64,000 nucleotides of DNA from Gemmatimonadota bacterium (lineage in GTDB: Bacteria > Gemmatimonadota > Gemmatimonadetes > Palauibacterales > Palauibacteraceae): positions 37,494 through 101,493 of the forward strand of contig JBHHZD010000002.1 of NCBI GenBank assembly GCA_046757885.1, written 5' to 3'. Below, one piece after another: positions 17,193-58,980 of this stretch; the stretch's first letter is position 1; every line of letters starts with the position of its first letter. The position numbers and the translations under genes were made by a program. Under the pieces are notes generated by a model. It did not search any database, was not told the origin of the DNA, and saw nothing but the letters and a program-made list of their open reading frames with translations.

Positions 17193-17199
17193 GAACCCC

Positions 17200-39087: not shown

Positions 39088-39097
39088 GGCGGACACC

Positions 39098-39841
39098 GTG
39101 CGCGCGATCCTCATGTATCATTCGATCGACTCCTCCGGCTCGCCCATCTCCGTGGACGTGGCCGCTCTGCGGCGCCACGCGGAGTGGCTCGCCGCCGCGC
39201 CCGTACGCGTGACCGGCCTGGCGGACCTGGTGGAGGGCCCGGCCGAGGAGGACGCCATCGCCATCACGTTCGATGACGGTTTCGAGAACTTCCGGAGCGT
39301 CGCGTGGCCGATCCTGCGCGGCCACGGGATCCCGGTCACCCTGTTCATCGTCACGGACCACGTGGGGAGCGACAATCGGTGGGGAGGCCGGCGTCAGCAC
39401 GGGATCCCCACGCTGCCCCTCCTGGGCTGGGACGCGCTCGGCGAACTGGCCGAGGAGGGCGTCCGCCTCGGGTCGCACACCCGCTCGCACCCGCATCTGC
39501 CGGCCCTCCCCCCCGAGGCTCTCCAGGAAGAGCTGGCGGGCTCGGCCGACCGGCTGGCCATGGAGACCGGCCGGCGGCCGGAGGCGTTCGCCTATCCGTA
39601 CGGATCCGTGGACGGTCGGTCGGCGCGGGCCGTGCGCACCCTCTACCGGTACGGATGCACGACGGAGCTGCGCTGCGTCGAGCGATCGGAGTCCGCGGAG
39701 CGGCTCCCGCGCCTCGACATGATCTACTTCCGGTACCCGGGCCGGCTCGAGACCTGGGGCGGGAAGGCGTTCGCTCGCCGGCTGCGGTTTCGCCGCGCGG
39801 CCAGGCGAGTGCGACGCGCCGTGCTCGGAGGCGGAACGTGA
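39098..39841 (+). CDS. Polysaccharide deacetylase (CE4)
   Basis: GTG start. ITFDDGFEN... TLFIVTDH... HTRSHPHL. Confidence 0.7.
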   Translation: MRAILMYHSIDSSGSPISVDVAALRRHAEWLAAAPVRVTGLADLVEGPAEEDAIAITFDDGFENFRSVAWPILRGHGIPVTLFIVTDHVGSDNRWGGRRQHGIPTLPLLGWDALGELAEEGVRLGSHTRSHPHLPALPPEALQEELAGSADRLAMETGRRPEAFAYPYGSVDGRSARAVRTLYRYGCTTELRCVERSESAERLPRLDMIYFRYPGRLETWGGKAFARRLRFRRAARRVRRAVLGGGT

Positions 39842-43914: not shown

Positions 43915-44030
43915 GACCGGAGGTGTGGCACCGGCGCCACGCCGCGACGGGCGGGGGCGGGCCGCGGCGCAACGGGGACCGGATGGGCCGCATTCTGGCG
44001 CGGTCCGGCACGGGCCGTCAGATTGTCCGG

Positions 44031-44046
44031 CGGCACCGCACTTGCG
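44031..44046 (+). promoter_or_regulatory. Sigma-54-like -24/-12 element CGGCACcgcacTTGCG
   Basis: GG (44032-33) and GC (44044-45) 12 nt apart, about 52 nt upstream of the VTC-domain gene ATG at 44098. Confidence 0.45.
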
Positions 44047-44097
44047 CAGCCGGTTTCCGTCCGGACGCTGTGACAGGACTCGGGAAAGGTTCCGGCC

Positions 44098-44826
44098 GTG
44101 CCGGCTAGCTACCAGCGGACGTTCAATCGCTTCGAGGTGAAGTATCTCCTGCCCCAGGCGGAGATCCGGAGTCTCCTGTCCGAGCTGGACGGGTACCTGC
44201 TGCCCGACCCGCACGGCGACGGGGTCTGGGGATATCCCGTGCACTCGGTGTACTGGGACTCGGCGGACCTCACGATGTTCTGGGAGAAGATCGAAGGGAT
44301 CAAGTTCCGCCGGAAGCTGCGATTCCGCTCGTACGGCGACGGAGAGCCCTTCGTCGAGATCAAGCAGCGCCTGGATCGGACGATCCAGAAGCGGCGGGCG
44401 CGCCTGCCCCTGGACCGGATGCGATCCGTGTTCGGCTGGGGCCGGGACCCGGAGCCGGCCGCGGACGCGGACATCGACGACCCGATCGTCGCGGAGGCCG
44501 TCCTTCTGCGGCATTCCTACCGGCTGGAGCCCCGGGTCGCGATCCGATACCGGCGACGGGCCTTCTTCGGCGCGTACGAGCCGGATCTCCGGCTCACGTT
44601 CGACACGCGCGTCCAGTACTCCACGACGCGGCTCGAGCCGGCTCCGCCCCTCGAGACGGGAAAGTATCTCGTGGACCCGCGGCTGGCCGTGATGGAGATC
44701 AAGTTCAACGAGCGCGTGCCGCTGTGGCTCCTTCGGCTCGTCGCGAGGCGCGGCCTGTCGCTCGTCCGGCTCTCGAAGTACTGCGGCGCGGTGGATCGGG
44801 AATTCTTCGGATCCGAGCTCACCTGA
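44098..44826 (+). CDS. VTC-domain protein (polyphosphate-polymerase/CYTH-like triphosphate-tunnel domain)
   Basis: N-terminal FNRFEVKYLL and overall about 240 aa, typical of bacterial VTC-domain proteins (PF09359-like). Confidence 0.65.
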   Translation: MPASYQRTFNRFEVKYLLPQAEIRSLLSELDGYLLPDPHGDGVWGYPVHSVYWDSADLTMFWEKIEGIKFRRKLRFRSYGDGEPFVEIKQRLDRTIQKRRARLPLDRMRSVFGWGRDPEPAADADIDDPIVAEAVLLRHSYRLEPRVAIRYRRRAFFGAYEPDLRLTFDTRVQYSTTRLEPAPPLETGKYLVDPRLAVMEIKFNERVPLWLLRLVARRGLSLVRLSKYCGAVDREFFGSELT

Positions 44827-44859
44827 GGCAGCCGGGTAACCCCCAACCGTGAGGGCAAG

Positions 44860-45555
44860 GTGGACGAACTGATTCGCGAGATGATGCAGACCTCTTCGAT
44901 CGGCGGGGGGTTCGAGCTGTGGGAGGCCATCGTGGCCCTGTCGCTCAGCTTCTTTCTCTGCCTCCTCGTCGCCTATTTCTACCGCGAGACCCATCGTGGG
45001 CTTTCGTACTCGGTCGCCTTCGTGCACACGATGATCCTGATGGGCGTGACGGTGTCGATCATCATGCTCATCATCGGGAGCAACATCGCCCGCGCCTTCG
45101 CGCTGGTCGGAGCCCTGTCGATCATCCGCTTCCGGAACGCCGTCAAGGAATCCCGGGACGTCGCCTTCATCTTCCTCACGATGGCCATCGGCATGGCGAC
45201 GGGAACCGGCTTCTATCTGTCCGCGATCGTGTTCACCCTCTTCATGTGCGCCATCATCTACTTCCTCCACCGGTTCGACATCGGGGCCATGAAGACGCGG
45301 GAGATCCTCCTCAAGCTCCACCTGGCGGGGTCGGAGGACTACCACGCGGTGTACAACGACGTGTTCTTCCGCTACCTGCGCGAACAGTCCCTGCTGAGCG
45401 TGGAGACGCTCGGAGCCGACGACCGGACCGAGCTCGTATACTCGATCCAGTTCAAGCGCGGGGCGGACGAGAAGGCCTTCCTCGACGAGGTGCGGGGCGT
45501 GAGCGGGACGAGCAAGGTCGCGCTCCTGCCCGGACAGGAGAACATCAACGTCTGA
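44860..45555 (+). CDS. DUF4956-like membrane protein (usual partner of bacterial VTC-domain proteins)
   Basis: 231 aa. Three or four TM helices, then a C-terminal soluble region (KLHLAGSEDYHAVYNDVF... IQFKRGAD). Confidence 0.6.
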   Translation: MDELIREMMQTSSIGGGFELWEAIVALSLSFFLCLLVAYFYRETHRGLSYSVAFVHTMILMGVTVSIIMLIIGSNIARAFALVGALSIIRFRNAVKESRDVAFIFLTMAIGMATGTGFYLSAIVFTLFMCAIIYFLHRFDIGAMKTREILLKLHLAGSEDYHAVYNDVFFRYLREQSLLSVETLGADDRTELVYSIQFKRGADEKAFLDEVRGVSGTSKVALLPGQENINV

Positions 45556-45571
45556 TCCGGAGGGCCCCGAC

Positions 45572-46690
45572 GTGCTCGGACGGCTGCGCCGATTCGTGAT
45601 GCTGCGGGAGAGGGGGCTCACCCTGTCCCTCGGGGCCGCCCTCGCCGTGGCGGTCGGGATCCTCGCGGTCCCGCCGGCCCGGGCGGCCGTCCTGCGAGCC
45701 GCCGAGCGGGCCGCCGACGCGTGGGAGGCCCGCTGGACCCGCCGGCTCGAGGCGGGCGAGCGGCTCGTGGCACGGGGCGAGTACGAGCGCGCCGCGAGGT
45801 ACCTCGCGGCCCTCGACCGGCGCTTTCCCGCGGTCACGGTCAAGCACGCGAGGGACCGCGAGCGCGAGCGCCTGCTCGCGGCGCTCGGCCGCAGCTACAC
45901 GGAGCTCGGCCGGAAGCGGCTCGCGCTGGACGCCTTCCGTCGTCTCGTCGACTTCGATCCGCGCAACGTGGCGAACCACGCCGCGCTCGCCCGGGCGAGC
46001 CTTCGCTTCGACGAGCCCGAGGCGGCGCGCGACGAGTTCGCCGCGATCCTGCGCGTGGACCCGATGCATTTCGAGGCGCTCACGGGCTACATCGGATACT
46101 TCTTCGATCGCGGGGAGTACGGGCGGGCCGTGGAGGCCTTCCGGACGTATCTGGACGCGCTCGTCCCCACCCGGATCCTGGCCGGGTTCGGAGGGACGGA
46201 GACCGCGGTCTACGTGCCCGCGGACGGCCGGGTCCGGCCCGTGTCGCTGGCCCTGCTCGCTCCCGGCGGACGGGGCCGCCTCTCGCTGGGGACGGACGGC
46301 TTCTCGGTGGAGATCGGGAGCCTCGAGGCGATCGGGCCTCTGCTGGGCGGGCGGCCCGGCAGAACCGACGCGTCCGCGGCCCTGCCCCGGGTGGCGTGGA
46401 ACGCCGTGGGCTTCCGCCCCGTCTCGGACCGGAGGTTCCTCGCCCGGGACGCGGACCCCGTGCTGCGGGGGCCGGAGGTCCGGCTCCCCCACGGGATCGA
46501 GCGTGTGGAGCTCAGGATCCGGGTGCTCAAGCCCGTCCCGCCGCGGCTCTGGGAGTCGGTGCGCGCCAGCTATCGCAACACGCTGGACTTCGAGGGACTC
46601 GCGGACGCGCGGGCCCGCTCCGCCCTCTGTCCGGCCGCGGCGGGAGAGGATCCTCCCTGCTCGAGCGTGAGGTGGCCCGGTGACCTCTAG
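45572..46690 (+). CDS. TPR-repeat protein with N-terminal signal/anchor
   Basis: Repeated helical A/R/L-rich TPR-like units (YERAARYLAALD..., YTELGRKRLALDAFRRLVDFDPRNV...). Confidence 0.5.
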   Translation: MLGRLRRFVMLRERGLTLSLGAALAVAVGILAVPPARAAVLRAAERAADAWEARWTRRLEAGERLVARGEYERAARYLAALDRRFPAVTVKHARDRERERLLAALGRSYTELGRKRLALDAFRRLVDFDPRNVANHAALARASLRFDEPEAARDEFAAILRVDPMHFEALTGYIGYFFDRGEYGRAVEAFRTYLDALVPTRILAGFGGTETAVYVPADGRVRPVSLALLAPGGRGRLSLGTDGFSVEIGSLEAIGPLLGGRPGRTDASAALPRVAWNAVGFRPVSDRRFLARDADPVLRGPEVRLPHGIERVELRIRVLKPVPPRLWESVRASYRNTLDFEGLADARARSALCPAAAGEDPPCSSVRWPGDL

Positions 46691-49600
46691 GACCGGGGCG
46701 CGGCGCCGGCGGCGCGTGCGGCTGCGGGACGTCGTCCTGCTGTCCCTGCCCCTGGACTTCCTCCTCGGGTTGCTCCTCGCGGGATCCGTGCTCGACTACG
46801 TCCGCGCCCGCCAGTTCGACGACTGGTGGTCCCGCGGGTTCAGCGTGCCGGAGCTGTTCGCCGACCGGATCTGGGCCGCCGCCACGCTGCCGCGCGCGCT
46901 CAGCCTCGAGCGCCGGACGGATCCGGAGGGGGCGGACCCCGGCATCGTGCGCCTGCGCGTGACCGGGGAGGGATGGCAGGGCCTCACCGGAGACGCTCTG
47001 GCCCGCTGGAGCGAGTGGACCGACGCCGTCCTCCTGGAGCCGGGAGACGCCCGGGCCGTCGAGCTCCGCAAGAGGGGGGACACGAGCGTGCACTGGCTCA
47101 CGCCGAAGAAGTCCTTCACGCTGAAGACGTCGAGAACGGGTCTGTTCAAGGGCTACCGGCGACTCGCCTTCTCCGTGAAGGACGTCCTGCCGCTGTACGT
47201 GTCGAATCGGCTCGCCGCGGAGTTCGGCCTCCTGGCCCCGAGCACCGGGGTCGCCCCCGTCTTCCTCAACGATCGATTCTACGGGATGTTCCGCTGGGTC
47301 GAGCCCGTGGACGAGTCCTTCCTCCGACGCCACGGCCGGATGCCGGGGAACCTCTGGGAGGGCGAGGTCGCCGAGCGGGGCGAGAACTTCAAGGGGCTCC
47401 CGCGGGGCCTGTTCCACTACCCGTACATCTGGGAGCGGACGGCCATCAACGACCGTCCGGGCGCGGACACGACGGATGCCCTGCGGGGGCTCATCGAGGA
47501 CCTTCAGGGCGGCTCCTTCGCGTCGCACCTCGCGCTCATGGGACGGCTGGATCGCGAGGAGATCGCCCGCTTCGTCGCCTACCTGCTCGCGGTCGGCGAC
47601 CCGTACCACATGGACAACCTGCACAACCAGGTCTGGTACGAGGATCCGTCGACGGGCCTCCTTCACCCGATTCCCTGGGACGTGCGTTTGCTCGACCTCC
47701 GGGATCCGCCGATCTGGGTGAACCATTTCCTGCAGTCCGTCCTCCGCGATCCGTTCGTCGTGGACCGGGCGCTGGAGATTCTGCGCGACGAGCTCGCCGA
47801 CGAAGCCCTCGCGCGGAAGGCGGAGGACCTCACCCGTTCGGCCTGGGACCGGTACCGCTCGCACTTCGCGTACGACAGGGCCCGTCGGCGGATCGTCCCC
47901 GACGTCGGAACCCCGGCGCAGGTCATCGGGCGTCTGCGGACGAATCTGGACGTGCTCCGGACCTGGATGGAGGATTCGCGCGTGGCCGTGGCCGTGGGCG
48001 CCGGGGTCCGGCCCGACGGCACGACCATCGTGGATCTGGAGACCCGGGGATACGCGGGAGCCGATCTCGTCGGGCTCGACGTGGCAGGGGGCGGGAGCAT
48101 CCGGCCCCGCGTCGTCGCGGATCGAAACGGAAACGGGCTGCCGGACGCGGGGGACCGGACCGTGGACGGGGCGTGGACCCGGGCGGCCGACACCCTTCGG
48201 TTCGTGCCGGTGGAGCCGGTGGCGCTCCTCCCGGGCTGGGACACCCGCGAGCGCGGCATCCGCCCGGGGGCCGTGCACTACCGGCTCTTTCTCGTGCCTC
48301 CGCGTCGCTCGGGCCGGCTTTCTGCGCCGGCGGCCGTCGTCCCCCGGCTGCGGAACCGGATCGGCGCCTCTCCGACGCGCATCGAGCGATGGAGCGATGG
48401 GGATCCGCCGACCCCGACCCGCTCCTTCAGCCCGTGGTCCTTCCCCGCGCCGCGGGGCGCCAGCCGGATCTGGCGCGGCGGCGTGCGCGTCGGACACACG
48501 CTGCGGGTGGGTCGGGCCGACACCCTCATCATCGAGGCCGGCACGACCGTGGTGCTGGATCCGGAAGTCTCCCTCGTGGTGCGCGGCCATCTCGAGGTGC
48601 GCGGCGCACCGGATCGGCCCGTCCGCTTCCAGGCCTCCGATGCGCGGCATCCATGGGGAGCCCTCGCGCTCCAGGGACCGGGCGCGGGCGGGAGCGTGAT
48701 CCGCCACGCCCGCTTCTCCGGCGGCGGCGGTGCCACGATCGACCGGATCGAGTACACCGGGATGGTGAACGTGCACGGGGCCGACGACGTGCGGCTCGAG
48801 CACGTCGAGCTCCTCGACAACCTCCGCAGCGACGATGCGCTGCACGTCCTTCACGCCCGCGTCTTCCTCAGCGACTGCCGGTTCCGGAACGCGAACGGGG
48901 ACGCCGTGGATCTGGACTATGCCACGGGACGGATCGAGCGCTGCCGCTTCGAGGGATCCCGGAACGACGCGGTCGACCTGATGACGTCGAGCCCGGCCAT
49001 CATCGCCAGCGTGATGACCGGGTCCGGTGACAAGGGGATCTCGATCGGCGAGCGGAGCCGCCCGCTGCTCGTGGCGGACACGATCACCGGATCGACGCGC
49101 GGCATCGAGGTGAAGGACGGATCGGAGCCGGTCGCGCTCGGCGGACTCGTGACCGGCAACGGAGTCGGTCTCCTCGAGAACGTGAAGAACTGGCGGTACG
49201 GAGCCGGCGGCCGGGCCCGCCTCGTGGGGCTCGCCATCCGGGAGAACGCCGTCGATACGGCGCGGGATCAAGCGTCACGCGTCACGCTGCCCGCAGATTC
49301 CTCGCGGCTCGCGGACGAGGAGACGAGGCGCCTCCTCGCGATCCACGGCGTGGCGGATGACCCCGAGCTCGCGGCCACGGCGGCGGCCGGCCGCGCGGTC
49401 CGCCTCGTCGCGCGGGAGGCCTTCGTCGACGACTTCGCGCCCATCGCCGGGTGGCGGGGAACGGCGGGCGTGCGCCGACTCGTCCGTCGCTCGGACGATC
49501 TCGTCGTCACGTTGGATCGACGGGGCGGGATGGCGGAGCGCGAGGTGGACTGGGACCTCACCGACACCGGTCGCTCGTACTGGATCGTGCTCGAGCTCAC

Positions 49601-49862
49601 CACCCGGGCCGTGGCCGACGGGCGCATCACGATCCGCGGCGAGCGGGACACGGTCCAGGTGCCGACACCGCCGGAAGAGGTTCCGGGGGTGTACCGGTCC
49701 GTGGTCGTCGAACTGCCGCCGGACCGGTACACGGCCCTCGTGCTTTCCGGGCTTCCCGGAGCCGGGGCACGGCGGGTGGACCCGCGGACGGGCCTCGTGG
49801 AGCTGGACGGCGCCCGCATCCGGCTGCATTCCTGGGGGGTGTATGCGATCCCGAGGACCTGA
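46680..49862 (+). CDS. Large CotH-kinase-family-like protein with C-terminal right-handed beta-helix repeats; N-terminal TM anchor
   Basis: CotH-like block FLNDRFYGMFRWVEPVDESFLRRHG... YHMDNLHNQVWYEDP... HPIPWDVRLLDL. Later, parallel beta-helix-like repeats (NANGDAVDLDYATGRIERCRFEGSRNDAVDL; GSTRGIEVKDGS...). 1060 aa. Confidence 0.55.
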   Translation: MTSRTGARRRRRVRLRDVVLLSLPLDFLLGLLLAGSVLDYVRARQFDDWWSRGFSVPELFADRIWAAATLPRALSLERRTDPEGADPGIVRLRVTGEGWQGLTGDALARWSEWTDAVLLEPGDARAVELRKRGDTSVHWLTPKKSFTLKTSRTGLFKGYRRLAFSVKDVLPLYVSNRLAAEFGLLAPSTGVAPVFLNDRFYGMFRWVEPVDESFLRRHGRMPGNLWEGEVAERGENFKGLPRGLFHYPYIWERTAINDRPGADTTDALRGLIEDLQGGSFASHLALMGRLDREEIARFVAYLLAVGDPYHMDNLHNQVWYEDPSTGLLHPIPWDVRLLDLRDPPIWVNHFLQSVLRDPFVVDRALEILRDELADEALARKAEDLTRSAWDRYRSHFAYDRARRRIVPDVGTPAQVIGRLRTNLDVLRTWMEDSRVAVAVGAGVRPDGTTIVDLETRGYAGADLVGLDVAGGGSIRPRVVADRNGNGLPDAGDRTVDGAWTRAADTLRFVPVEPVALLPGWDTRERGIRPGAVHYRLFLVPPRRSGRLSAPAAVVPRLRNRIGASPTRIERWSDGDPPTPTRSFSPWSFPAPRGASRIWRGGVRVGHTLRVGRADTLIIEAGTTVVLDPEVSLVVRGHLEVRGAPDRPVRFQASDARHPWGALALQGPGAGGSVIRHARFSGGGGATIDRIEYTGMVNVHGADDVRLEHVELLDNLRSDDALHVLHARVFLSDCRFRNANGDAVDLDYATGRIERCRFEGSRNDAVDLMTSSPAIIASVMTGSGDKGISIGERSRPLLVADTITGSTRGIEVKDGSEPVALGGLVTGNGVGLLENVKNWRYGAGGRARLVGLAIRENAVDTARDQASRVTLPADSSRLADEETRRLLAIHGVADDPELAATAAAGRAVRLVAREAFVDDFAPIAGWRGTAGVRRLVRRSDDLVVTLDRRGGMAEREVDWDLTDTGRSYWIVLELTTRAVADGRITIRGERDTVQVPTPPEEVPGVYRSVVVELPPDRYTALVLSGLPGAGARRVDPRTGLVELDGARIRLHSWGVYAIPRT

Positions 49863-50955
49863 CGCGCGGCGCGCGATCGCGGGGGCGCTCCTCCTCGCGA
49901 CGCTCCCTCCCGGTCCGTACCGGCCGGTCCGGGCGCAGGAACCGGCGAGTCCGGCGGCGGACGAGTTCACGTTCGTGGTCCTCGGCCACGTGCGCGGGAA
50001 CGAGTCGGGCCCTCACTATCTTCTCGGCTCGCTCGTGGCGGAAGTGCGGGCCCTTCATCCGGACCTCGTCTTCCTGACCGGAGACATCATCTGGGGCGAC
50101 GTGCGGACGAATCCGGCCGATTCCGCCTCCGTCGAGCGCGAGTGGGACGTCGTCGATTCCGCCTTCGCGGCGATCGGGGCCCCCGTCTACCGCGTTCCCG
50201 GGAACCATGACATCAACGATCTCGTGACGCGGGACATCTACGCCCGCCGGTACGGCCTCCCGCCCGCCTTCGTGGACTACGGGGGCTACCGGTTCCTTCT
50301 CCTGAGCAGCAGCTGGATCCCGGCGGACGGAGATACCCGCAAGCGCCTGTTCATCCGGGGCAAGGACCTGGACGAGGCTCAGATCGCATTCCTGCGCCGG
50401 GCGCTCGCGCCGGACGAGGCCCGGCGGGGCGCCTTCGTCCTCATGCATCACCTCCTGTGGTGGGAGGAGGACGCGCCGTGGTGGCGGGATGTCCACCCCC
50501 TTCTGCGGGAGGGCGGAGTGCGGGCCGTGTTCGGCGGCGACTACGGTCCGATGAAGTTCTCGCACATGCGCCGTGACGGGATCGACTACTTCCAGAGCTC
50601 GATCGAGGGAGATGTCCGCATCCCGATCCTGCGCGCCCGCGAGGAGAGCCGACTCCTCTCGGCCCAGTTCGACAACTACCTCGTCGTCCGGGTCCGGGGG
50701 GCCGACGTGAGCGTGGACGTGCGCCCGTTCGCGGCCGTCGAATCCGGGCACTTCACCCCGCAGCGGTGGAGAGAGATCCACGCGGACGAACTCGCGGACG
50801 CGGGGGCGGCCGCCCGGCTGCGCCGGCGCCTGGCGTCGGTGTGGGGGACGATCAACAGCCCGAAGCGGCTGCTGGCTCTCGGGGTCGTGGTCGCCCTGAT
50901 CTTCGGCGCCGGATTCGCGGCCGCCTCGCTGTGGAGCCGGCGCCTGGGCCGATAG
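49843..50955 (+). CDS. Metallophosphoesterase (calcineurin-like) with signal peptide and C-terminal TM anchor
   Basis: FTFVVLGHVRGN..., LTGDIIWGD, VPGNHD metal-binding motifs; C-terminal helix LLALGVVVALIFGAGFAAASLW. Confidence 0.6.
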   Translation: MRSRGPDARRAIAGALLLATLPPGPYRPVRAQEPASPAADEFTFVVLGHVRGNESGPHYLLGSLVAEVRALHPDLVFLTGDIIWGDVRTNPADSASVEREWDVVDSAFAAIGAPVYRVPGNHDINDLVTRDIYARRYGLPPAFVDYGGYRFLLLSSSWIPADGDTRKRLFIRGKDLDEAQIAFLRRALAPDEARRGAFVLMHHLLWWEEDAPWWRDVHPLLREGGVRAVFGGDYGPMKFSHMRRDGIDYFQSSIEGDVRIPILRAREESRLLSAQFDNYLVVRVRGADVSVDVRPFAAVESGHFTPQRWREIHADELADAGAAARLRRRLASVWGTINSPKRLLALGVVVALIFGAGFAAASLWSRRLGR

Positions 50956-50964: not shown

Positions 50965-52131
50965 TCACGCCTCGGGCGGCGCCGCGGACGCGCCGTCCTC
51001 GATCGGAAGGCCCTCGCCGTCGATGCGAATCGGGACGTGGTCGGCGGGATCCAGCGGACGCGGCCGCCTCCAGACCCTTCCCCCGACCATGGCGCGCGCC
51101 GCCCAGCCCGGATTGTAGGCGATGCTCGACCACAGGAAGACCTCGGTCGTGCAGTGGCATCGCCTCGCGGCCACGTGGGCCCGCAGCTCGTCGGTCCGGG
51201 GGGAGTTCCAGATCTCGGGGAAGGTCTGCTCGCGCAGGTTGCCGAGCGGCGTGTGCATCTCGCACAGCGACACGTCTCCGTTCGCGTACACCACGCCCGT
51301 GAGCCGACCCGCCCGGCAGGGAACGACCTGGCGGTTCTCCTTCATCGTCCTGACCTTCGCCCACTGGAGCATCGGCTCCACGGCCGCGCCGTAGCGACCC
51401 TCCTCGCGAGGGGCCCACAGACGGCGGATGTACGCGTACAGCTCCTCGTAGCGGTGCTGGAGGGGGGCCTCGAGCCCGGGATTCTTCCGGTCGCCCCGGA
51501 TCACGGCCAGGTTGTGGTGGTCCATCTTCGGACACCGCTCGTACAGGTAGGTCGTGAGGCGGCGGATCTCGTCCATGTTCACGTCGGTGGCGGTCGAGAT
51601 CGCGTGGATCCGGAGCCGGGCATCGCTCTCCTGAAGCGTCGCCAGCGCATCGTAGGACTCCATGGCGCGTCGGAACGAGTTCCGCGCGACCCGGAACGTG
51701 TCGTGAAACTCGGGCATGCCGTCCAGCGAGAGCTCGACGACGAACAGGTCGAGACCCGGTTCCTCCAGCGTCTCGCCCACCTGCTTCACGATGCGGTCCG
51801 GAAAGTACCCGTTCGTCGGCACGTAGATCTGGCCGACCCCGTTGTGGCGGATGAACTGGCGGCAGATCTCCGAGAACTCCTTGCGCAGGAACGGCTCGCC
51901 GCCCGAGAGGTTCAGGTTCTCGACCGGCCCGAGAGAGCGGGAGAGCTCGAAGATCTCGTCCTTCGTCAGGTCGTCCTTGCCGTTCAGGCTTCGCCAGTAG
52001 AAGCAGTGCTCGCACTTCATGTTGCAGAGCGAGTTGATGAACAGGATGAGGAAGGGCGGCGTCGGAGGCGTCTGATAGCCCTTCCGAAGGATCCGGAGCC
52101 TGCGGCGGGTGCTCTCCAGCCTGTTCGGCAT
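50965..52131 (-). CDS. Radical SAM enzyme with C-terminal Cys-rich (SPASM/twitch-like) auxiliary-cluster domain
   Basis: CNMKCEHC (CxxxCxxC) and the GGEP motif (LSGGEPFL); C-terminal Cys at VVPCRAG... SLCEMH... RRCHCT. I placed the start at the ATG at 52131, which has a GAGG Shine-Dalgarno 9 nt upstream; an alternative ATG lies at 52146. Confidence 0.7.
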
Positions 52132-52203
52132 GCGGCGAAACCTCATCCCCGCGCACGCGGGGGGACGTCGGGTGCTCCGATACCAGCCTACATCAACGTC
52201 GTA

Positions 52204-53700
52204 TCAACCTGCAACTGTCGTGCCGGGCGTGTCCCCGTCGGCCGATGCGGGCCAGCCGCGCCACAGGAGCCACAGGAGGACGCCCACGACGGCGAACACG
52301 GGGAGCGGGGAGGCCCCGTCCGCCAGGTACGGCGCGTAGGCGCCGGCCGTCTTCCGCAGGACGGTGAGCCAGGGAAGCTCGAACCCGCCGAGCAGCACGT
52401 GCGCGAGGGAGGTGGGCACGGATTCCCGCGCCATCGCGACGCTCCACGAGATGACGACGGTCGGCAGGACGACGAGGACCCTGAGAACCCCGGGCGTCCG
52501 AAGAAGGACGGGCACGAGCGCCAGGTACAGCAGGGGGACGGCCGGGACCAGGTAGCGCACACCCGTGTTGAACTGGAGCCGGGCGAACTGGATCGAGCTC
52601 GCGAACACGAGGAGCGCGCCCGTCGCCACGAGGGCGAAAGCCACCCCCGCCGGGCCGGGATCGCCGGGACGGCGCCGCAGCCACGGCGCCGCGACGGCCA
52701 GCGCGAGCATCGGACAGAACGCGAGGAGCCCGAACCGGGGATCCAGGAGATTCCGCCACAGGAGGTCGGGTGCCGGCGCCGTGATCCCGTGCCAGCCACG
52801 GACGCTGAACGGCGTCGCGGGCATGTAGCTCTGCGCGGGCAGCCACGGATTCCCGAACGCCCGCCACTGGTATCCGAACAGGAGGAGAAGGGGGCCCGCC
52901 GCTCCCAGCGCGAACCAGGCAGCCGAGCGCAGGGCCCGGCGCGGGCCGCCGGCCCGCCAGCCGTCGGCCATCGTCCACACGCCGAATGCTGCCGCGAGCG
53001 GCGCGGCGCTGTAGTCCGTCAGCAGGGCCAGGCCCAGGAGCGCCCCGACGCCCGCGAGCCTCCGCGGTCCCCGGGCACCCGCCCGCCTCTCCGGATCGAC
53101 GCCCAGCATCGCCACGAAGGCGAACAGCACGAGGTGCGCCACGATCGCATTCTGGTTCAGGAACGCGGACCGGAAGAAGATCGGCGTGCCGAAGGCGTAC
53201 AGAAGCGCCAGCCAGAGGGCACGCCTCTCCCCGACACGGGCGCGCAGGAACAGGAAGACGAGAACGGCCGCCAGGCCTCCGAGGGGCGCCATGAGCCCGA
53301 CCTGCATGCTCGCCGCCGCGAGCCCGAGCTTCACGTCCAGCCCCCGCGCTCGCGCCTCGTTGAAGAAGCGCGTCCGGTTGGGGCGCGGATCGTCGTAGGT
53401 GCCGGGCGGCTTCGGCCGCGCGAGCTCCGGCCGGGCCGCGAACAGGATCGCGACGAACGGCCGCGAGAGGGCGTACGGGACCGCGCCGAGCAGCGAGGCG
53501 CCCGGATTGTTGTTGACGTAGACGCCGCGCCCCGGGACGCGGAACAGGTCCGGGTGGAGGCCCTCGTAGGCGTCCACGCGCAGGGACGGCCCGTCACCGA
53601 GCGCCACGGCGAGATACGTCTCGCGCACGACGTTGGACGCGAAGTGCGCCCCGTACACGAGCCACACGGTCAGGAACAGGCGTCTCGCGGTTCCCGTCAC
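52204..53700 (-). CDS. Polytopic membrane protein, possible GT-C-fold glycosyltransferase
   Basis: GTG at 53700, directly after the upstream stop. About 12 TM helices with a periplasmic-type loop YVNNNPGASLLGAVPY. The ORF is open further upstream but overlaps the FAD-oxidoreductase gene. Confidence 0.5.
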   Translation of the reverse strand: MTGTARRLFLTVWLVYGAHFASNVVRETYLAVALGDGPSLRVDAYEGLHPDLFRVPGRGVYVNNNPGASLLGAVPYALSRPFVAILFAARPELARPKPPGTYDDPRPNRTRFFNEARARGLDVKLGLAAASMQVGLMAPLGGLAAVLVFLFLRARVGERRALWLALLYAFGTPIFFRSAFLNQNAIVAHLVLFAFVAMLGVDPERRAGARGPRRLAGVGALLGLALLTDYSAAPLAAAFGVWTMADGWRAGGPRRALRSAAWFALGAAGPLLLLFGYQWRAFGNPWLPAQSYMPATPFSVRGWHGITAPAPDLLWRNLLDPRFGLLAFCPMLALAVAAPWLRRRPGDPGPAGVAFALVATGALLVFASSIQFARLQFNTGVRYLVPAVPLLYLALVPVLLRTPGVLRVLVVLPTVVISWSVAMARESVPTSLAHVLLGGFELPWLTVLRKTAGAYAPYLADGASPLPVFAVVGVLLWLLWRGWPASADGDTPGTTVAG

Positions 53701-53702: not shown

Positions 53703-55124
53703 TCAGTCCTCCACCACGTGGGTGTCGAAGATCGCACGGCGTGCCGCCCACAGCGCCGGATCCACGCGGCCATCGCGCAGGCACTCGACCGCGCTGTAGG
53801 CCATGAACAGCGCGTGGTGCGTGTTGTCGTGTGCGAACAGCCCCTGCCGCCCGAAGGTGAGGAGGCCGGGGAGGTCCGTGGCCCACGCGTCGAGGCGCGC
53901 GAAGGAAGCCTCGTATCCCCTCCCGTAGATCGGGTAGGCGTGGCGGAGGCGCCGGACCGTGACGCCGATGGGTGGATCCGGCGGCCCGATCCCTGCCCGC
54001 TCCAGGTCCGCCATCACCCGGTCTCCGAGGGCCTCGTCCTCGAGGCTCCACACGTCGTCGTCCGGGGCGCACGGGAGCTCCGCGCACAGGGTCGTCCGGC
54101 CCCGCGGCTCGTCGAGATTCGCGTAGTTCTTCGTCTCGGAGAGCCGGGTGACCGTCACGTCGGGGCCCGGGAAATAGTGGGCGTCGTATTCCGTGAACCG
54201 GTCCACGGGGAGCGTCAGATAGACGAGGAGCATCGCCCGGTAGTCGATGCTCGCGGCCGCCTGCCGGACCTCCTCGGGGGGCTCCGGCCGGGTGATCCCC
54301 GCCAGGGCGGTGATCGGAATCGTGGACCACACGGCGTCGGCCTCGATCTCCCGCGGACCGCCCTCCCCCTCGGCGCGAACCCGCCACACGCCCCCGCCGT
54401 CGGGCCGCTCGAGCGCCGTGACCCGCTCGCCGAGCCGGATCTCCGCCCCCACCTGCCTCGCCGCCTCCGCATAGGCCTCGCAGATCGCCCCGAAGCCGCG
54501 CCTCGGATAGAAGAAATGGCTGAATCCCACGGCCGGGACGCCCGGAATCCGGCCCAGGACCTTGCGGGCGAGCTTGCCGGGGGAGTTCGCCGCGACGCGC
54601 CGGTGCGCCTGCGTGGCGGAGAGCTCCTCGGGCGCCCTGCCCCAGATCTTCCGCGCGTACGGGAAGTAGAAGCGCTCGCAGATCGTCGGCCCGAGGCGCG
54701 CCAGGAGCACCGAGGCGAAGGACTCCTCGGGTCCGCGTCCCTGACCCACCAGGCGCCCGACCGCGTCCCGCGCCGCCCCGAGGGCGAACGAGGGATCCAG
54801 CCGGAGGAGGAGGTCCAGGGGGCGGAGGGGAAACCGGATCCACCGCCCGTCGAGCCGGATCCGGCCGTGTCGGGGCCGCGTCAGCAGCTCCCCGCCCAGC
54901 AGCTCGCGGATGTCCGCCATGATCCCCGGCTCGCAGGCCGGGTGGAGCCGGTGGCTCCCGAAGTCCACTCGCTGGCCGGCCACGTCGAACGAGCCGGCGT
55001 TCCCGCCGACCACGGTCTTCTGCTCCAGGACCGTCACGGCCGCGCGGTTTCCGGTCCTCAGCCGGAAGGCCGCGCCCAGTCCGGCCGGCCCCGCGCCGAG
55101 GATGACGATGCGGGGCTCAGACAT
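53703..55124 (-). CDS. NAD(P)/FAD-dependent oxidoreductase (amine-oxidase/protoporphyrinogen-oxidase-like), paralog of 34181..35662
   Basis: RIVILGAGPAGLGAAFRL... VLEQKTVVGGNAGS dinucleotide-binding motif. 473 aa. Confidence 0.7.
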   Translation of the reverse strand: MSEPRIVILGAGPAGLGAAFRLRTGNRAAVTVLEQKTVVGGNAGSFDVAGQRVDFGSHRLHPACEPGIMADIRELLGGELLTRPRHGRIRLDGRWIRFPLRPLDLLLRLDPSFALGAARDAVGRLVGQGRGPEESFASVLLARLGPTICERFYFPYARKIWGRAPEELSATQAHRRVAANSPGKLARKVLGRIPGVPAVGFSHFFYPRRGFGAICEAYAEAARQVGAEIRLGERVTALERPDGGGVWRVRAEGEGGPREIEADAVWSTIPITALAGITRPEPPEEVRQAAASIDYRAMLLVYLTLPVDRFTEYDAHYFPGPDVTVTRLSETKNYANLDEPRGRTTLCAELPCAPDDDVWSLEDEALGDRVMADLERAGIGPPDPPIGVTVRRLRHAYPIYGRGYEASFARLDAWATDLPGLLTFGRQGLFAHDNTHHALFMAYSAVECLRDGRVDPALWAARRAIFDTHVVED

Positions 55125-56103
55125 AGCGGCGTCGGGCCCGACCGAGCGCCCGGAGGGACGTCGGCTCCCCGGCGCGATCAGCGGCTCCGCTCCACCGTCC
55201 GAGCGCGAGCCACAGCCCTCCCGCGATCAGGCCCCCGGCGATGAGAATCGACTGCCAGACGAGGGAAGCGACGACACCGGTGGCCATCGGCACGCCGAGC
55301 GGCACGAGGATCGCTCCGAGCGTCGCGTCCCGCACCCCGAGGCCTCCGAGGCTCACCGGGAGGAGTCCGGCGGCCTTGGCGAGCGGCCAGGCGAGGAACC
55401 AGGCCCCCAGCGGCACGTCGATCCCGAGAGAGCGGCCGATCCACGCGTTCAGGAGGACGAAGCCCGACTGCATGGTCAGCGAGATCGCGAGCGCGGCGAG
55501 CGCCGTGGACGGGCTCCGGGCGAGACGTCTTGCGCCGACGAGCGCCCGGCCGATCGGCCGGCGCAGGCGGGCGGGCCATCGGCGCAGCGGCCTGCGGGCC
55601 GCGAGGATCAGCGTGAGCGACGCCGCGGCGACGCCGGCCAGGAGGGCGAGGGTGACCGCGCTCGCTACCTTGGCCGGCAGGGCGCCCCTGGCGAGGATCC
55701 CGCCCGACGCGATGAGCAGGGCGAGGACGGCGACATCGACGAGCCGGTCCCCGATCCCCCCCAGCACGGCGGCCTCCGCCCGGCGGGTCTCTCGGGCCGC
55801 GAGCGCCGCCCTCAGGACGTCGCCGCCCACGATGCTCGGGAGGCAGAGATTCGCGAACAGGCCCGCGGCGTAGAAGCGGATCGCCTGCACCGGGGTGAGG
55901 AGGCAGCGGCCGGCGCGAAGGAGCATGCGCCACTTCGCGGCCCCGAGCCTGTGACCGGCCAGGAAGGCCGCCAGCGCCCCGAGCCACACCCAGGGCCGCA
56001 TCCGTCCGGCCGCGTCCCGCACGTCGCTCCAGGGCAGGAGGAGGACGAGGGCGGCCAGCACCGCGAGGGTCACGAGGACCCGGACGATCACGCGGACCCT
56101 CAT
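55117..56103 (-). CDS. Lysylphosphatidylglycerol-synthase TM-region-like (flippase-like) membrane protein, paralog of 22801..23775
   Basis: About 8 TM helices with the conserved LPSIVGGDVLRA motif (cf. LPSTIGGDTVRG in the paralog). Confidence 0.55.
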   Translation of the reverse strand: MRVRVIVRVLVTLAVLAALVLLLPWSDVRDAAGRMRPWVWLGALAAFLAGHRLGAAKWRMLLRAGRCLLTPVQAIRFYAAGLFANLCLPSIVGGDVLRAALAARETRRAEAAVLGGIGDRLVDVAVLALLIASGGILARGALPAKVASAVTLALLAGVAAASLTLILAARRPLRRWPARLRRPIGRALVGARRLARSPSTALAALAISLTMQSGFVLLNAWIGRSLGIDVPLGAWFLAWPLAKAAGLLPVSLGGLGVRDATLGAILVPLGVPMATGVVASLVWQSILIAGGLIAGGLWLALGRWSGAADRAGEPTSLRALGRARRRYV

Positions 56104-58798: not shown

Positions 58799-58911
58799 CA
58801 GGCAATGTCCGTTCCAGAACTCTCCGCCGGGCGGGGCGCCCTTCGATGGCGCGGAATCCGGGTGACGCCGGGCGGGCGAGCCGTCTGGAGGGCCCGCGCG
58901 CCGGGGCCGCG

Positions 58912-58925: not shown

Positions 58926-58980
58926 GTCCGCGCCACAAGGTGCGCACCCGGCGCTCGAGCCGGCAACACGCGGCCCGCTC

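Follow-up and report, generated by a model that had tools for sequence, protein, structure and literature searches.

A five-gene VTC, DUF4956 and CotH module in a Gemmatimonadota glycan locus is a variant of a three-gene core found across phyla

The window, by which we mean the whole 64-kb stretch of DNA analysed here, encodes GT2, GT4, PMT_2, Wzx, Wzy_C and UbiA proteins together with epimerases, deacetylases, one sulfotransferase and one lyase. This gene content confirms that the module described here lies inside a glycosylation locus. The module occupies positions 44031-50955 and consists of the following features:

44031-44045, + strand: sigma-54-type -24/-12-like element (CGGCAC-N5-TTGC) in the gap between the Wzx and VTC genes
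44098-44826, + strand: VTC gene, 242 aa, GTG start at 44098
44860-45555, + strand: DUF4956 gene, 231 aa
45572-46690, + strand: TPR gene, 372 aa
46680-49862, + strand: CotH/beta-helix gene, 1060 aa
49843-50955, + strand: metallophosphoesterase gene, 370 aa, likely ATG start at 49843

In an ORF check all five co-directional genes were recovered at the coordinates that an earlier note on this DNA had given, with the same intergenic distances of 33, 16, -11 and -20 nt (gaps or overlaps). The reading frame of the metallophosphoesterase is open from 49357 to 50955, and ATG 49843 was chosen as its start because nine homologues start there with a signal-peptide-like N-terminus. The codon-position composition of the module genes (GC3 0.90-0.93, GC2 0.37-0.55) and the hundreds of full-length homologues of each of them indicate that these ORFs are real genes and did not arise by chance. 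The lower GC content reported for the VTC and DUF4956 genes is real (0.669 for 44001-45000 compared to about 0.71), but it has a trivial explanation: the deficit is restricted to codon positions 1 and 2 and is therefore due to amino-acid composition, not to foreign origin.

The element upstream of the module, CGGCACcgcacTTGC, has one mismatch to TGGCAC-N5-TTGC, lies 53 nt upstream of the VTC start codon, in a Wzx-VTC gap of 183 nt. Within the window, sigma-54-like matches occur at chance rate (34 observed, 34.9 expected), but in relatives they are enriched upstream of VTC, where 8 of the 24 full-module loci have a site with no more than one mismatch in the 250 nt before the gene, compared to 0.19 expected. 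The spacers of these sites differ among related loci. Transcription of the module would probably start at a sigma-54-type promoter.

Pfam assignments were judged by the Pfam curated cut-offs, in bits, and the VTC, DUF4956, TPR, CotH plus beta-helix and Metallophos domains all score above them, including CotH and VTC, on which the earlier reading of the module depended. The VTC model (PF09359) matches with 131 bits (E 5.9e-38, cut-off 23). A profile built from 24 orthologues matches the catalytic domain of yeast Vtc4 (3g3q) with an E-value of 9.3e-10 and Vtc2 much more weakly (E 1.7e-3). In the profile alignment K15, R75, R77, E87, K89, R153 and R165 of the window protein correspond to K200, R264, R266, E279, K281, R361 and R373 of Vtc4, and all seven, including the six basic tunnel residues, are invariant among the 24 orthologues. 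By hydropathy, no hydrophobic or transmembrane segment was found in the VTC protein. It is a candidate stand-alone, cytoplasmic, Vtc4-like triphosphate-tunnel polyphosphate polymerase. Our literature search returned no prokaryotic VTC-domain protein shown to make polyphosphate.

DUF4956 (PF16316) was found in the second protein with 60.9 bits (E 1.6e-16, cut-off 30.6), and the MgtC model scores 29.9 bits, slightly below its Pfam cut-off. No other gene of the module is as well conserved; most of the 120 homologues listed share 62-77% identity and the same length of 231 aa. The architecture comprises four to five transmembrane helices followed by a C-terminal beta-alpha-beta-beta-alpha-beta (ACT/ferredoxin-like) domain, and R78, R90, R92, K96 and R99 form an invariant basic stretch. 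Modelling with AF2 (pLDDT 75) suggests an MgtC-like membrane protein; a Foldseek search with the model gave no informative PDB match.

In the TPR protein, TPR_14 is the only model above its Pfam cut-off (27.9 compared to 23.5), other TPR models scoring slightly below theirs. A hydrophobic segment at residues 15-33 forms an N-terminal signal or anchor, and a TPR homologue occupies the same position in all full-module loci. The last protein matches Metallophos (PF00149) with 39.1 bits (E 1.4e-9, cut-off 21.5), and its profile matches the mammalian purple acid phosphatase (PAP) 1qhw with an E-value of 1.1e-5. It keeps the GD, GNHD and HH motifs and lacks two canonical metal-ligand motifs, with H49 at the position of the first PAP Asp (DxH) and GD233YGP in place of GHxH. 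The N-terminus is signal-peptide-like, and a transmembrane segment at residues 343-361 would be a C-terminal anchor. In agreement with its description as secreted or anchored, the phosphoesterase is predicted to be exported and membrane-tethered, with purple acid phosphatases as its nearest relatives.

The 1060-aa protein is 100% identical to an NCBI protein from a Gemmatimonadota MAG labelled 'CotH kinase family protein', and 820 clusters match it at E<=1e-30 in a search of 50%-identity cluster representatives. CotH (PF08757) is annotated at residues 129-335 with 45.9 bits (E 7.2e-12, cut-off 23.8) and Beta_helix (PF13229) with 31.5 bits (cut-off 25.9). In the AF2 model (pLDDT 88.7, pTM 0.89) the following parts are distinguished:

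46722-46811, + strand: signal-anchor helix, residues 15-44, after an Arg-rich tail (hydropathy and a long helix in the model)
46947-47972, + strand: CotH kinase-fold domain, residues ~90-431 (Pfam CotH and Foldseek)
47982-48389, + strand: beta-sandwich linker domain, residues ~435-570 (secondary structure of the model)
48462-49292, + strand: right-handed parallel beta-helix, residues ~595-871 (Pfam Beta_helix, NosD in homologues)
49392-49853, + strand: C-terminal CBM-like beta-sandwich, residues ~905-1058 (Foldseek)

The Arg-rich tail before the anchor helix predicts an N-in orientation with the bulk of the protein outside, and most of the checked CotH proteins of related three-gene loci have the same basic tail and single N-terminal anchor. 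The best Foldseek matches of the CotH domain are Bacillus cereus CotH structures 5jd9 and 5jda (E 1e-13, target TM-score 0.68). K143, N316 and D334, the last aligned with D251 of B. subtilis CotH, are invariant in 43 orthologues of 40-76% identity, as are D307 and H310. D312, which aligns with the catalytic Asp D228, is Asp in 29 of the 43 orthologues and Ser in the other 14. The metal-binding Asp is replaced by Asn in beta-helix variants of Myxococcota, Planctomycetota and Aminicenantes, so some members of the family may be pseudokinases. The beta-helix is the domain richest in invariant residues (27, many of them Asp) and similar folds occur in phage capsule-depolymerase tailspikes, the K1 capsule lyase, GH87 enzymes and PL6 alginate lyases. 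Foldseek matches of the C-terminal domain, the least conserved folded domain of the protein, include CBM16, CBM29 and hyaluronan- and porphyran-binding modules. The high-confidence model describes a membrane-anchored ectoprotein that combines a CotH kinase fold with a depolymerase-like beta-helix and a CBM-like domain.

The order of the five genes is kept in at least 23 loci of Gemmatimonadota, Planctomycetota and others, with short gaps or overlaps and differing flanks, usually amid glycan-synthesis genes. We further surveyed 82 loci spread over many bacterial phyla, among them Gemmatimonadota, Planctomycetota, Myxococcota, Chloroflexota, CPR phyla and Actinomycetota (Glycomyces), and one archaeon, Methanofastidiosum. 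VTC adjoins DUF4956 in 79 of them, and a CotH gene lies within 5 kb in 72; contig ends explain most of the missing neighbours. The VTC-DUF4956-CotH core is nearly obligate across phyla, and its co-occurrence outside this genome, which the earlier note had mentioned, is real and much stronger than stated there. VTC is predicted to be cytoplasmic, DUF4956 polytopic, and the CotH, TPR and phosphoesterase proteins exported or anchored. Together with the linkage, this makes a cytoplasmic and an extracytoplasmic enzyme genetically inseparable, with a membrane protein between them.

Variants of the core differ in their additional partners. CotH proteins without a beta-helix stand beside VTC-DUF4956 in CPR, Chloroflexota, Glycomyces and one archaeon, and in Glycomyces a Metallophos gene lies directly upstream of VTC. 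In the Myxococcota-type variant a homologous porin gene is located next to the three-gene core in 12 loci; all five porins scanned pass the Porin_O_P threshold, which places them in the family of the phosphate- and pyrophosphate-selective porins OprP and OprO. Porin_O_P has no Pfam match among the window ORFs, and this porin is missing from the variant described here. Association with glycan loci is seen for the five-gene variant and for the Pel loci of Gram-positive bacteria, but is not general for the three-gene core, which is present in CPR genomes without nearby glycan genes, one CPR locus being placed between DinB and MutS. The acceptor is therefore not necessarily a glycan in every lineage.

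These results directly support the identity of the domains, their folds, the conservation of catalytic residues, the predicted topology and the synteny across phyla. A phosphate- or polyphosphate-dependent modification at the envelope, as suggested in the earlier note, is consistent with the predicted topology, the CotH and polysaccharide-type folds and the Myxococcota porin. As the main reading, with a probability of about 0.4, we propose that the module makes polyphosphate in the cytoplasm, exports it and feeds an extracytoplasmic CotH-type glycan phosphotransferase. VTC would polymerise the gamma-phosphate of a nucleotide triphosphate into polyphosphate. DUF4956, with its cytoplasmic ACT-like domain and invariant basic stretch, would dock VTC at the inner membrane and pass the growing chain to the outer face, aided by the inside-negative membrane potential. 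The pair would be analogous in function to the yeast VTC complex, but not homologous to its channel. In the periplasm of the host, which is probably diderm, the 1060-aa protein would hold the polysaccharide made by the locus via its beta-helix and CBM-like domains, and the CotH domain would draw on the exported polymer to attach phosphate, or a polyphosphate chain, to this polysaccharide. Exported polyphosphate as the donor would overcome the absence of ATP outside the cell. The tethered phosphoesterase may trim or recycle the polymer or the phospho-glycan, and the TPR protein may be the scaffold of the complex. If true, extracytoplasmic, polyphosphate-driven polysaccharide modification would be a chemistry not yet shown in bacteria.

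We know of no kinase-fold enzyme that uses polyphosphate as a donor. Some observations count against the proposed model: DUF4956 has no relationship to the yeast VTC channel, and its closest family, MgtC, is described as regulatory and not as a channel (PMC12345266); further, there are the variable D228 position, the Asn variants of CotH and the motif losses of the phosphoesterase.

The same VTC, DUF4956, topology and porin evidence would also fit exported polyphosphate as the product itself, a periplasmic or surface reservoir of phosphate and metal or a matrix polyanion, which the CotH protein captures or tethers and the phosphoesterase mobilises. The core in CPR genomes without glycan genes nearby and the Asn at the metal-binding position, suggesting binding rather than catalysis, speak for this, and the yeast vacuole pairs VTC with lumenal polyphosphatases as a phosphate buffer (PMC12668673). 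We regard it as unlikely, however, as the invariance of K143, N316 and D334 argues for catalysis and the near-universal retention of CotH beside the pair is hard to explain by tethering alone. It is improbable that CotH is an ATP-using Ser/Thr kinase of secreted or envelope proteins, with VTC and DUF4956 as MgtC-like regulators of phosphate homeostasis. The CotH domain is predicted outside the inner membrane, where ATP is unavailable, and is fused to polysaccharide-type domains, and a Vtc4-like polymerase with an intact tunnel in 79 of the 82 loci would be left unexplained; this stands against the strong fold match to 5jd9 and 5jda and the facts that the one CotH characterised so far phosphorylates proteins (PMC7821199) and that MgtC proteins have regulatory roles (PMC12345266).

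The density of invariant residues in the beta-helix, mostly Asp on successive rungs, and its resemblance to depolymerases and lyases would suit a lyase, hydrolase or epimerase acting on the exopolysaccharide, with CotH, given its variable catalytic-loop Asp and the Asn substitutions, as a non-catalytic binder and VTC as a tri- or polyphosphatase. This too is quite unlikely: the beta-helix-free CotH proteins beside VTC-DUF4956 imply that the conserved partner is the kinase fold and not the beta-helix, and VTC is a closer match to Vtc4, which is catalytically active, than to Vtc2. Inward acquisition, in which a porin and a phosphatase together set phosphate free and let it in, for VTC to store at the membrane as cytoplasmic polyphosphate, could draw on the known phosphate or pyrophosphate uptake of OprP/OprO-family porins (family description), the kinship of the phosphoesterase with purple acid phosphatases and the influence of MgtC on phosphate uptake (PMC12345266). 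But Vtc4-type enzymes use nucleotide triphosphate and not imported phosphate (PMC12668673), we saw no genes for Pst- or Pit-type transporters next to the module in the window and related loci, and there would be no role for the kinase fold or the polysaccharide-binding domains, which makes this idea doubtful as well. That five unrelated genes became neighbours by accident, in a window crowded with glycan genes of many families, is extremely improbable; it is contradicted by the synteny, with the five-gene order kept between differing flanks and the three-gene core kept across phyla.

Compared with known systems, the CotH domain shares with Bacillus CotH (5jd9, 5jda) the Pfam family, the fold, the Lys, the catalytic-loop Asn and the metal-binding Asp (D251 equivalent). 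Bacillus CotH is a soluble 360-aa protein which uses ATP to phosphorylate the coat proteins CotB and CotG (PMC7821199), whereas the window protein has a membrane anchor, a predicted location outside the cytoplasm and additional domains of carbohydrate type. Compared with Bacillus CotH, its catalytic loop lacks one residue, and the D228 position is variable. The Fam20B xylose kinase and POMK, secretory-pathway glycan kinases with a protein-kinase-like fold, are a precedent for extracytoplasmic sugar phosphorylation; both use lumenal ATP.

In the yeast VTC complex, polyphosphate synthesis is coupled to passage of the chain, possibly by electrophoresis, through the complex's own transmembrane channel, and the chain that emerges is acted on by polyphosphatases in the lumen (PMC12668673). 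Like the yeast complex, the window module combines a triphosphate-tunnel catalytic domain, in which the conserved basic tunnel residues are the same, with an obligate membrane partner and a phosphatase across the membrane. Ppn2 is an enzyme of the metallophosphatase superfamily. Unlike yeast VTC, the window module has neither an SPX domain nor a VTC-type transmembrane domain, its candidate polymerase is a separate soluble protein and its membrane partner belongs to the unrelated DUF4956/MgtC-like family.

The three-gene core itself is already on record as an accessory gene set in the pel clusters of Gram-positive bacteria (Whitfield et al., bioRxiv 10.1101/768473). In Streptococcus intermedius, where the set is SIR_1592-1594, mutants of the DUF4956-like and CotH-like genes have altered Pel levels and reduced Pel-dependent aggregation (PMC12345266). 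The earlier statement that these genes have no assigned function therefore needs updating, as the core is genetically implicated beside Gram-positive Pel loci. Both sets have mutually adjacent cotH, polyphosphate-polymerase and DUF4956 families beside exopolysaccharide genes, with a secreted or anchored CotH and an MgtC-like transmembrane protein with an ACT domain. No Pel-specific Pfam families were found among the window genes scanned. The window module differs from the pel set by adding a TPR protein and a PAP-like phosphoesterase, by being without DUF4832 and by a CotH protein of 1060 aa in which a beta-helix and a CBM-like domain take the place of FN3. In the S. intermedius study the three-gene arrangement was found at Pel loci only (PMC12345266), whereas we find it in many phyla and contexts, and the five-gene module is a variant of this known core.

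The five genes of the module all lie on the forward strand. ORF calls and Pfam matches agree with the earlier note on the reading frames, on their spacing of 33, 16, -11 and -20 nt and on their domain content. The genes are:

44098-44826, + strand: VTC-domain protein, 242 aa
44860-45555, + strand: DUF4956 membrane protein, 231 aa
45572-46690, + strand: TPR protein, 372 aa
46680-49862, + strand: CotH/beta-helix protein, 1060 aa
49843-50955, + strand: metallophosphoesterase, 370 aa

Codon-position GC is of the coding type in all five. The phosphoesterase frame is open from 49357, and the ATG at 49843 was chosen as the start because nine homologues have theirs at this point, with a segment resembling a signal peptide. 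An NCBI protein of a Gemmatimonadota MAG (contig of 109,819 bp) shares 100% identity with the 1060-aa protein. The mean GC of the window is about 71%. The VTC and DUF4956 genes had been described as lower in GC than their neighbours, and they are, with a compositional signal at codon positions 1 and 2 only (GC3 0.90-0.93). Since only these two positions are lower and GC3 is the same as in the neighbours, the drop reflects amino-acid composition, and a foreign origin of the two genes is ruled out. In NCBIfam, none of the five proteins had an informative equivalog.

The module is real and conserved. The 1060-aa protein has at least 120 full-length homologues with 40-76% identity, and 820 clusters (50% identity) match it at E<=1e-30. 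Annotated neighbourhoods of six homologues were compared. In four of them all five genes are co-oriented in the order of the window, separated by short gaps or overlapping; of the others, one is truncated by the contig end on the VTC side, and in one the phosphoesterase has moved about 4 kb upstream. A scan with a DUF4956 alignment, using one genome per species, found at least 591 relatives, of which the best 80 were kept. Among these best 80, an HMM search found the five genes in order in 21 distinct loci, and together with the related loci L084 and L085 there are at least 23. Most full-order loci belong to Gemmatimonadota and five to Planctomycetota, while others are labelled Deltaproteobacteria, Alphaproteobacteria or unclassified. 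The flanks vary by locus and repeatedly contain glycan genes: GT4 in 15 of 25 loci, amine-oxidase-like FAD enzymes in 11 and Wzx in 9, with PMT_2, epimerases, GT2 and radical-SAM/SPASM as further recurring neighbours.

The earlier note had stated that VTC and DUF4956 genes, often with a CotH gene, recur together in diverse bacteria, and the neighbourhood survey bears this out. VTC adjoins DUF4956 in 79 of 82 loci, and a CotH gene lies within 5 kb in 72 of the 82. The ten misses are mostly due to a contig edge on the relevant side, and a real absence is apparent only in loci L039 and L060. Six loci seemed to carry the VTC-DUF4956 pair alone (Glycomyces, Peregrinibacteria, Peribacteria, Thermoflexus, Aminicenantes and the archaeon Methanofastidiosum). 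Such pair-only loci proved to be an artefact of an HMM built from the 1060-aa clade, which misses divergent short CotH proteins. Pfam and jackhmmer searches corrected this, with CotH found 3' of DUF4956 in all six and directly so in four (Pfam, E 1e-27 to 1e-46). The gene orders are:

Gemmatimonadota type: VTC–DUF4956–TPR–CotH–phosphoesterase
some Planctomycetota: DUF4956–TPR–CotH–VTC
Myxococcota type: CotH/beta-helix, small ORF without Pfam match, VTC–DUF4956
Chloroflexota, candidate phyla (CPR), Actinomycetota and the archaeon: VTC–DUF4956–CotH

Genes for a cytoplasmic tunnel enzyme, a polytopic membrane protein and a kinase-fold protein predicted to lie outside the membrane almost always stay together. 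In the Myxococcota type, a homologous porin gene stands beside the core in 12 loci (L034, L037, L038, L047, L049, L051, L054, L059, L062, L065, L071 and L074; e.g. L038:5046-6164), and all five of the porins scanned passed the Porin_O_P threshold. Between their CotH and VTC genes, 16 loci have a conserved ORF of about 200 aa without Pfam match (e.g. L033:8651-9265). Glycomyces encodes a different Metallophos protein directly upstream of VTC. From their gene content, diderm lineages appear to add phosphate-themed periplasmic or outer-membrane parts, namely a phosphatase resembling purple acid phosphatases (PAP) or a putative phosphate-selective porin. One CPR locus lies between DinB and MutS, with no glycan genes in its vicinity, so the core is self-contained and its attachment to glycan loci is lineage-specific.

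Two of these loci deserve a separate description. In the cultured actinomycete Glycomyces algeriensis DSM 44727 (L082, 7405-13738), the gene after Metallophos–VTC–DUF4956–CotH lies on the other strand and encodes an MgtE magnesium transporter. In the Methanofastidiosum MAG (L041, 2701-5634), VTC–DUF4956 is followed by a TM-anchor ORF and a CotH ORF; these two probably belong to a single gene that a frameshift or the ORF calling has divided.

The window VTC protein matches Pfam PF09359 with 131.2 bits (cut-off 23, E 5.9e-38) over profile positions 1-231 of 235. A PDB search with the single sequence found no solved relative. A profile of 24 orthologues matches the catalytic domain of yeast Vtc4 with E 9.3e-10, and Vtc2 with just 1.7e-3. 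In the profile alignment to 3g3q and 8i6v, the Vtc4 residues K200, R264, R266, E279, K281, R361 and R373 correspond to K15, R75, R77, E87, K89, R153 and R165 of the window protein; this mapping covers all except the C-terminal third, where the equivalents of E426 and K458 are not confidently aligned. All seven, of which the six basic ones are conserved tunnel residues of catalytic Vtc4, are invariant in the 24 orthologues, which share 51-61% identity. The window protein is thus a candidate Vtc4-type polyphosphate polymerase with an apparently intact tunnel. In contrast to the yeast VTC proteins, it consists of the VTC domain alone, without SPX domain and TM segment, and where yeast has the TM subunits of the VTC complex, the neighbouring membrane protein of the window is DUF4956/MgtC-like.

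This neighbour matches Pfam PF16316 with 60.9 bits (cut-off 30.6), whereas MgtC proper stays below the cut-offs (PF02308 29.9 vs 31.4 bits; NCBIfam MgtC/SapB 23.3 vs 214). It is the most conserved member of the module; its best 120 homologues are 62-90% identical and mostly exactly 231 aa long. In the AF2 model (pLDDT 75), five helices within residues 20-138 precede a beta-alpha-beta-beta-alpha-beta domain at 144-223. The invariant core GSNIARAFALVGALSIIRFRN..K..RD contains five invariant basic residues. Searching the model against the PDB with Foldseek gave generic ferredoxin/ACT-like matches above E 1e-3 and left the membrane domain unmatched. The same architecture, TM helices with a C-terminal ACT-like domain, was described for SIR_1592 of S. 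intermedius by its authors.

The model of the 1060-aa protein has a pLDDT of 88.7 and a pTM of 0.89. Its predicted domains are:

N-terminus: Arg-rich tail
15-44: anchor helix
about 90-431: CotH fold
435-570: beta-sandwich
595-871: right-handed beta-helix
905-1058: C-terminal beta-sandwich

The CotH match to Pfam PF08757 (45.9 bits vs 23.8) is partial and covers profile positions 1-211 of 322. The best Foldseek matches are the Bacillus cereus CotH structures 5jd9 (E 1.1e-13) and 5jda (3.1e-13), with a target TM-score of 0.68 over about 390 columns. The next matches, to the beta-helix, are capsule-depolymerase tailspikes of phages, K1 capsule lyase, GH87 enzymes and PL6 alginate lyases, and those to the C-terminal domain are CBM16, CBM29 and modules that bind hyaluronan or porphyran. 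The CotH domain has 24 invariant positions and the beta-helix 27, so these two are equally constrained, and the CBM-like domain is the most variable. In most of the CotH proteins checked, a basic N-terminal tail precedes one hydrophobic anchor.

In B. subtilis CotH, the catalytic D228 and the metal-binding D251 are both essential (PMC7821199). D334 of the window protein aligns with D251 and is invariant in 43 orthologues, as are K143 and the catalytic-loop Asn N316. D312, aligned to D228, is Asp in 29 and Ser in 14 of the 43; the alignment of this loop, which is one residue shorter than in Bacillus CotH, is ambiguous, and the nearby D307 and H310 are invariant. The genomic setting also differs, as Bacillus CotH acts as a protein Ser/Thr kinase in the spore-coat context and the window CotH is encoded in a Gemmatimonadota polysaccharide locus.

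Some related CotH/beta-helix proteins have Asn in place of the metal-binding D334, with WN instead of WD (L038:6255-8999, L035:11802-14471 and L033:5737-8658). These are beta-helix types of Myxococcota, Planctomycetota and Aminicenantes, and judging by this substitution they may be pseudokinases. Two such loci have a second CotH gene. In L033 this is a canonical short CotH (10743-12641) that has LTD and chitobiase C-terminal domains; in L047, a second ORF (3045-4604) matches CotH.

The phosphoesterase matches Pfam PF00149 with 39.1 bits (cut-off 21.5), and among solved structures it is closest to mammalian purple acid phosphatases (E 1.1e-5). The metal-ligand motifs GD81, GN121H122D and H202/H203 are kept. 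The Asp of the first motif is absent, with H49 at the position of the first PAP Asp, and GHxH is replaced by G232-D233-Y-G-P; because of these two replacements, the motifs suggest a remodelled metal site. The N-terminus of the protein is signal-like, and residues 343-361 form a C-terminal TM segment. The TPR protein has weak TPR matches at residues 100-197 and one N-terminal hydrophobic segment.

Upstream of the VTC gene, CGGCACcgcacTTGC at 44031-44045 has one mismatch to TGGCAC-N5-TTGC and had been named in the earlier note as a sigma-54-like element. Within the window such one-mismatch matches occur at the chance rate, and the distant loci L001 and L002 are without the site, which suggested a chance match. 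A scan of 24 full-module loci reversed this: eight sites with at most one mismatch lie on the sense strand in the 250 nt before VTC, where the remainder of these loci would predict 0.19 (Poisson ~4e-11, uncorrected for relatedness). The spacers vary between sites but the GG and TTGC blocks do not, and at one site TGGCAC-N5-TTGC is matched perfectly. Because the sites are enriched upstream of VTC across these loci, the element is likely a sigma-54-type promoter in the Gemmatimonadota lineage. No gene for an enhancer-binding protein or other sigma-54 activator was seen in the window.

A second one-mismatch sigma-54-like site, CGGCACGACAGTTGC at 52211-52225 (-), lies about 65 nt upstream of the start of a radical-SAM/SPASM gene at 52146. 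In the Planctomycetota full-module loci L012, L014, L020 and L026, a shared TGGAACATGC-NN-GGC about 150 nt upstream of VTC stands in place of the Gemmatimonadota GGCAC-N5-TTGC, and it may be a lineage-specific promoter or operator. Terminator and sigma-70 scans gave nothing useful, and there were no Rfam matches in the window or in the 5' gap.

By its predicted gene content, the entire 64 kb is a single polysaccharide or glycoconjugate locus. Pfam scans of about 50 window genes found several GT2 and GT4 glycosyltransferases and three GT-C of the PMT_2 type, furthermore Wzx, Wzy_C, a UbiA prenyltransferase, epimerases, deacetylases (one with DUF3473), a DegT aminotransferase, a sulfotransferase, a PL14-like lyase, two LPG_synthase_TM proteins, FAD oxidoreductases and a radical-SAM/SPASM enzyme. 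PADLOC defence models had no matches. The module is the end of a co-directional run of about 17 kb, which starts near 33854 with an FAD oxidoreductase and continues with GT4, GT4-like, epimerase, deacetylase-like, GT2, small membrane protein, UbiA and Wzx genes. The 183 nt between Wzx and the module are the largest gap in the run. The following features of the locus stand out:

13476-14813, - strand: PL14-like lyase with Big_2 domains
16209-17285, - strand: sulfotransferase
18219-19106, - strand: DUF3473-type polysaccharide deacetylase
22801-23775, + strand: LPG_synthase_TM (PF03706) membrane protein beside an FAD-dependent oxidoreductase
55117-56103, - strand: paralogue of the preceding, also beside an FAD-dependent oxidoreductase
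31630-33735, + strand, 58612-60870, + strand, and 60816-62594, - strand: large ORFs of 592-752 aa with coding-type GC3 and no Pfam match
about 36860-38113, + strand: GT4-like protein
about 38130-39087, + strand: NAD-dependent epimerase
39098-39841, + strand: deacetylase-like protein
50965-52146, - strand: radical-SAM/SPASM enzyme, immediately 3' of the module and convergent with it

The LPG_synthase_TM pair, together with UbiA, a GT2, a small ORF (129 aa, no Pfam match) and the three PMT_2 GT-C, suggests periplasmic glycosylation from polyprenyl-phosphate sugars. Deacetylases of the DUF3473 type are associated with PEP-CTERM/exosortase loci; no exosortase was seen in the window. The locus product may be a heavily modified anionic polymer. 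A recurrent ORF at 37783-39114 (-) is the antisense of the epimerase gene, the three genes between 36860 and 39841 being the true ones, and the GT2 gene probably starts near 39850 and not at 39304. ORF 58612-60870 overlaps an opposite-strand PMT_2 call at 57038-58969, so one or the other must be wrong in part. A homologue of the radical-SAM/SPASM enzyme lies near the module in 4 of 25 full-module loci, e.g. L003 11920-13011.

The earlier note had proposed a phosphate- or polyphosphate-dependent modification at the envelope. In the model that we favour, VTC would make polyphosphate, DUF4956 would pass it over the membrane, the CotH domain would use the exported polymer as phosphoryl donor on a glycan, and the phosphoesterase would trim or recycle. 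VTC and DUF4956 are here likened to yeast VTC by functional analogy. There, the complex couples synthesis to translocation through a channel that it forms itself, and the chain is acted on by polyphosphatases in the lumen (PMC12668673). We put the probability of this model, whose catalytic steps we infer throughout, at roughly 0.4. It is the simplest account of three facts: the core is nearly inseparable, the diderm add-ons are phosphate-themed, and in the window's clade the kinase fold is encoded within a polysaccharide locus and fused to domains of polysaccharide type. Going further, VTC and DUF4956 might be the first prokaryotic VTC-type polyphosphate synthase/translocase and the ecto-CotH proteins of bacteria and archaea might be polyphosphate-dependent phosphotransferases, jointly powering the phosphorylation of glycans or surface proteins outside the cytoplasm; we regard this wider proposal as conceivable but less likely than not. 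It would amount to a general system of polyphosphate-driven phosphorylation beyond the cytoplasmic membrane, where ATP is absent, with a TPR scaffold and the PAP-like phosphatase (window) or a phosphate-selective porin (Myxococcota) as diderm accessories.

Several points speak against the model of polyphosphate export and CotH phosphotransfer. MgtC-type proteins are known to act as regulators (PMC12345266). This would suit a CotH that is an ATP-dependent protein kinase with VTC and DUF4956 in regulatory roles, a reading that we consider very unlikely beside the invariant tunnel of VTC. Moreover, the position aligned with D228 varies, and D334 is replaced by Asn in the beta-helix variants of Myxococcota, Planctomycetota and Aminicenantes. 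Both would be compatible with a catalytic beta-helix and a CotH fold that is a pseudokinase, as would the strong constraint on the beta-helix; we give this reading little credence. We also know of no kinase fold that uses polyphosphate. Exported polyphosphate could itself be the end product, with no phosphotransfer by CotH; with a CotH gene beside nearly every VTC-DUF4956 pair, we find this unlikely, though less so than the other alternatives. The porin and the phosphatase would fit inward phosphate acquisition, which seems quite improbable next to a kinase fold fused to polysaccharide-type domains.

If the export model is true, polyphosphate synthesis of the eukaryotic (VTC) type works in bacteria and archaea alongside PPK1 and PPK2, and the source of the phosphoryl donor for many secreted or surface CotH-family kinase-fold proteins is explained. 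It would also describe a new route of exopolysaccharide modification in the widespread soil and sediment phyla Gemmatimonadota, Planctomycetota, Myxococcota and Chloroflexota, and would extend to the Pel biofilms of streptococci and clostridia, for which a phenotype of these genes is already on record. Should the model be wrong, the module nonetheless remains among the most tightly conserved uncharacterised gene sets at polysaccharide loci.

The three-gene core has been sighted before and is not new. Gram-positive pel clusters have a contiguous accessory group of cotH, polyphosphate polymerase, DUF4956 and DUF4832 (Whitfield and colleagues, bioRxiv 10.1101/768473), and in the NELoc-2 island of Clostridium perfringens, VTC-domain genes lie beside a CotH gene and a chitin-synthase-like glycosyltransferase. 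Mutants of the DUF4956-like and CotH-like genes of S. intermedius have altered Pel levels and aggregation, by a mechanism that the authors state to be unknown (PMC12345266). The S. intermedius question becomes testable, with K15, R75 and R77 of VTC and K143, N316 and D334 of CotH named for mutation; cultured carriers of the core are S. intermedius and Glycomyces algeriensis DSM 44727. Literature searches turned up no biochemical work on a prokaryotic VTC protein, no functional work on a bacterial one and nothing on the five-gene diderm form. Judged by the literature that could be searched, four things appear to be new: the five-gene variant with TPR protein, beta-helix/CBM fusion and PAP-like phosphoesterase; the porin-bearing variant; the uniform predicted topology of inside–membrane–outside; and the near-obligate linkage of the core over bacterial phyla and an archaeon, well beyond Pel loci. 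Among the roughly 50 window genes scanned there were no Pfam matches to the Pel-specific families (pelDEADAFG) or DUF4832. VTC, DUF4956 and CotH are mutually adjacent in the Gram-positive Pel accessory set, and likewise in the window module.
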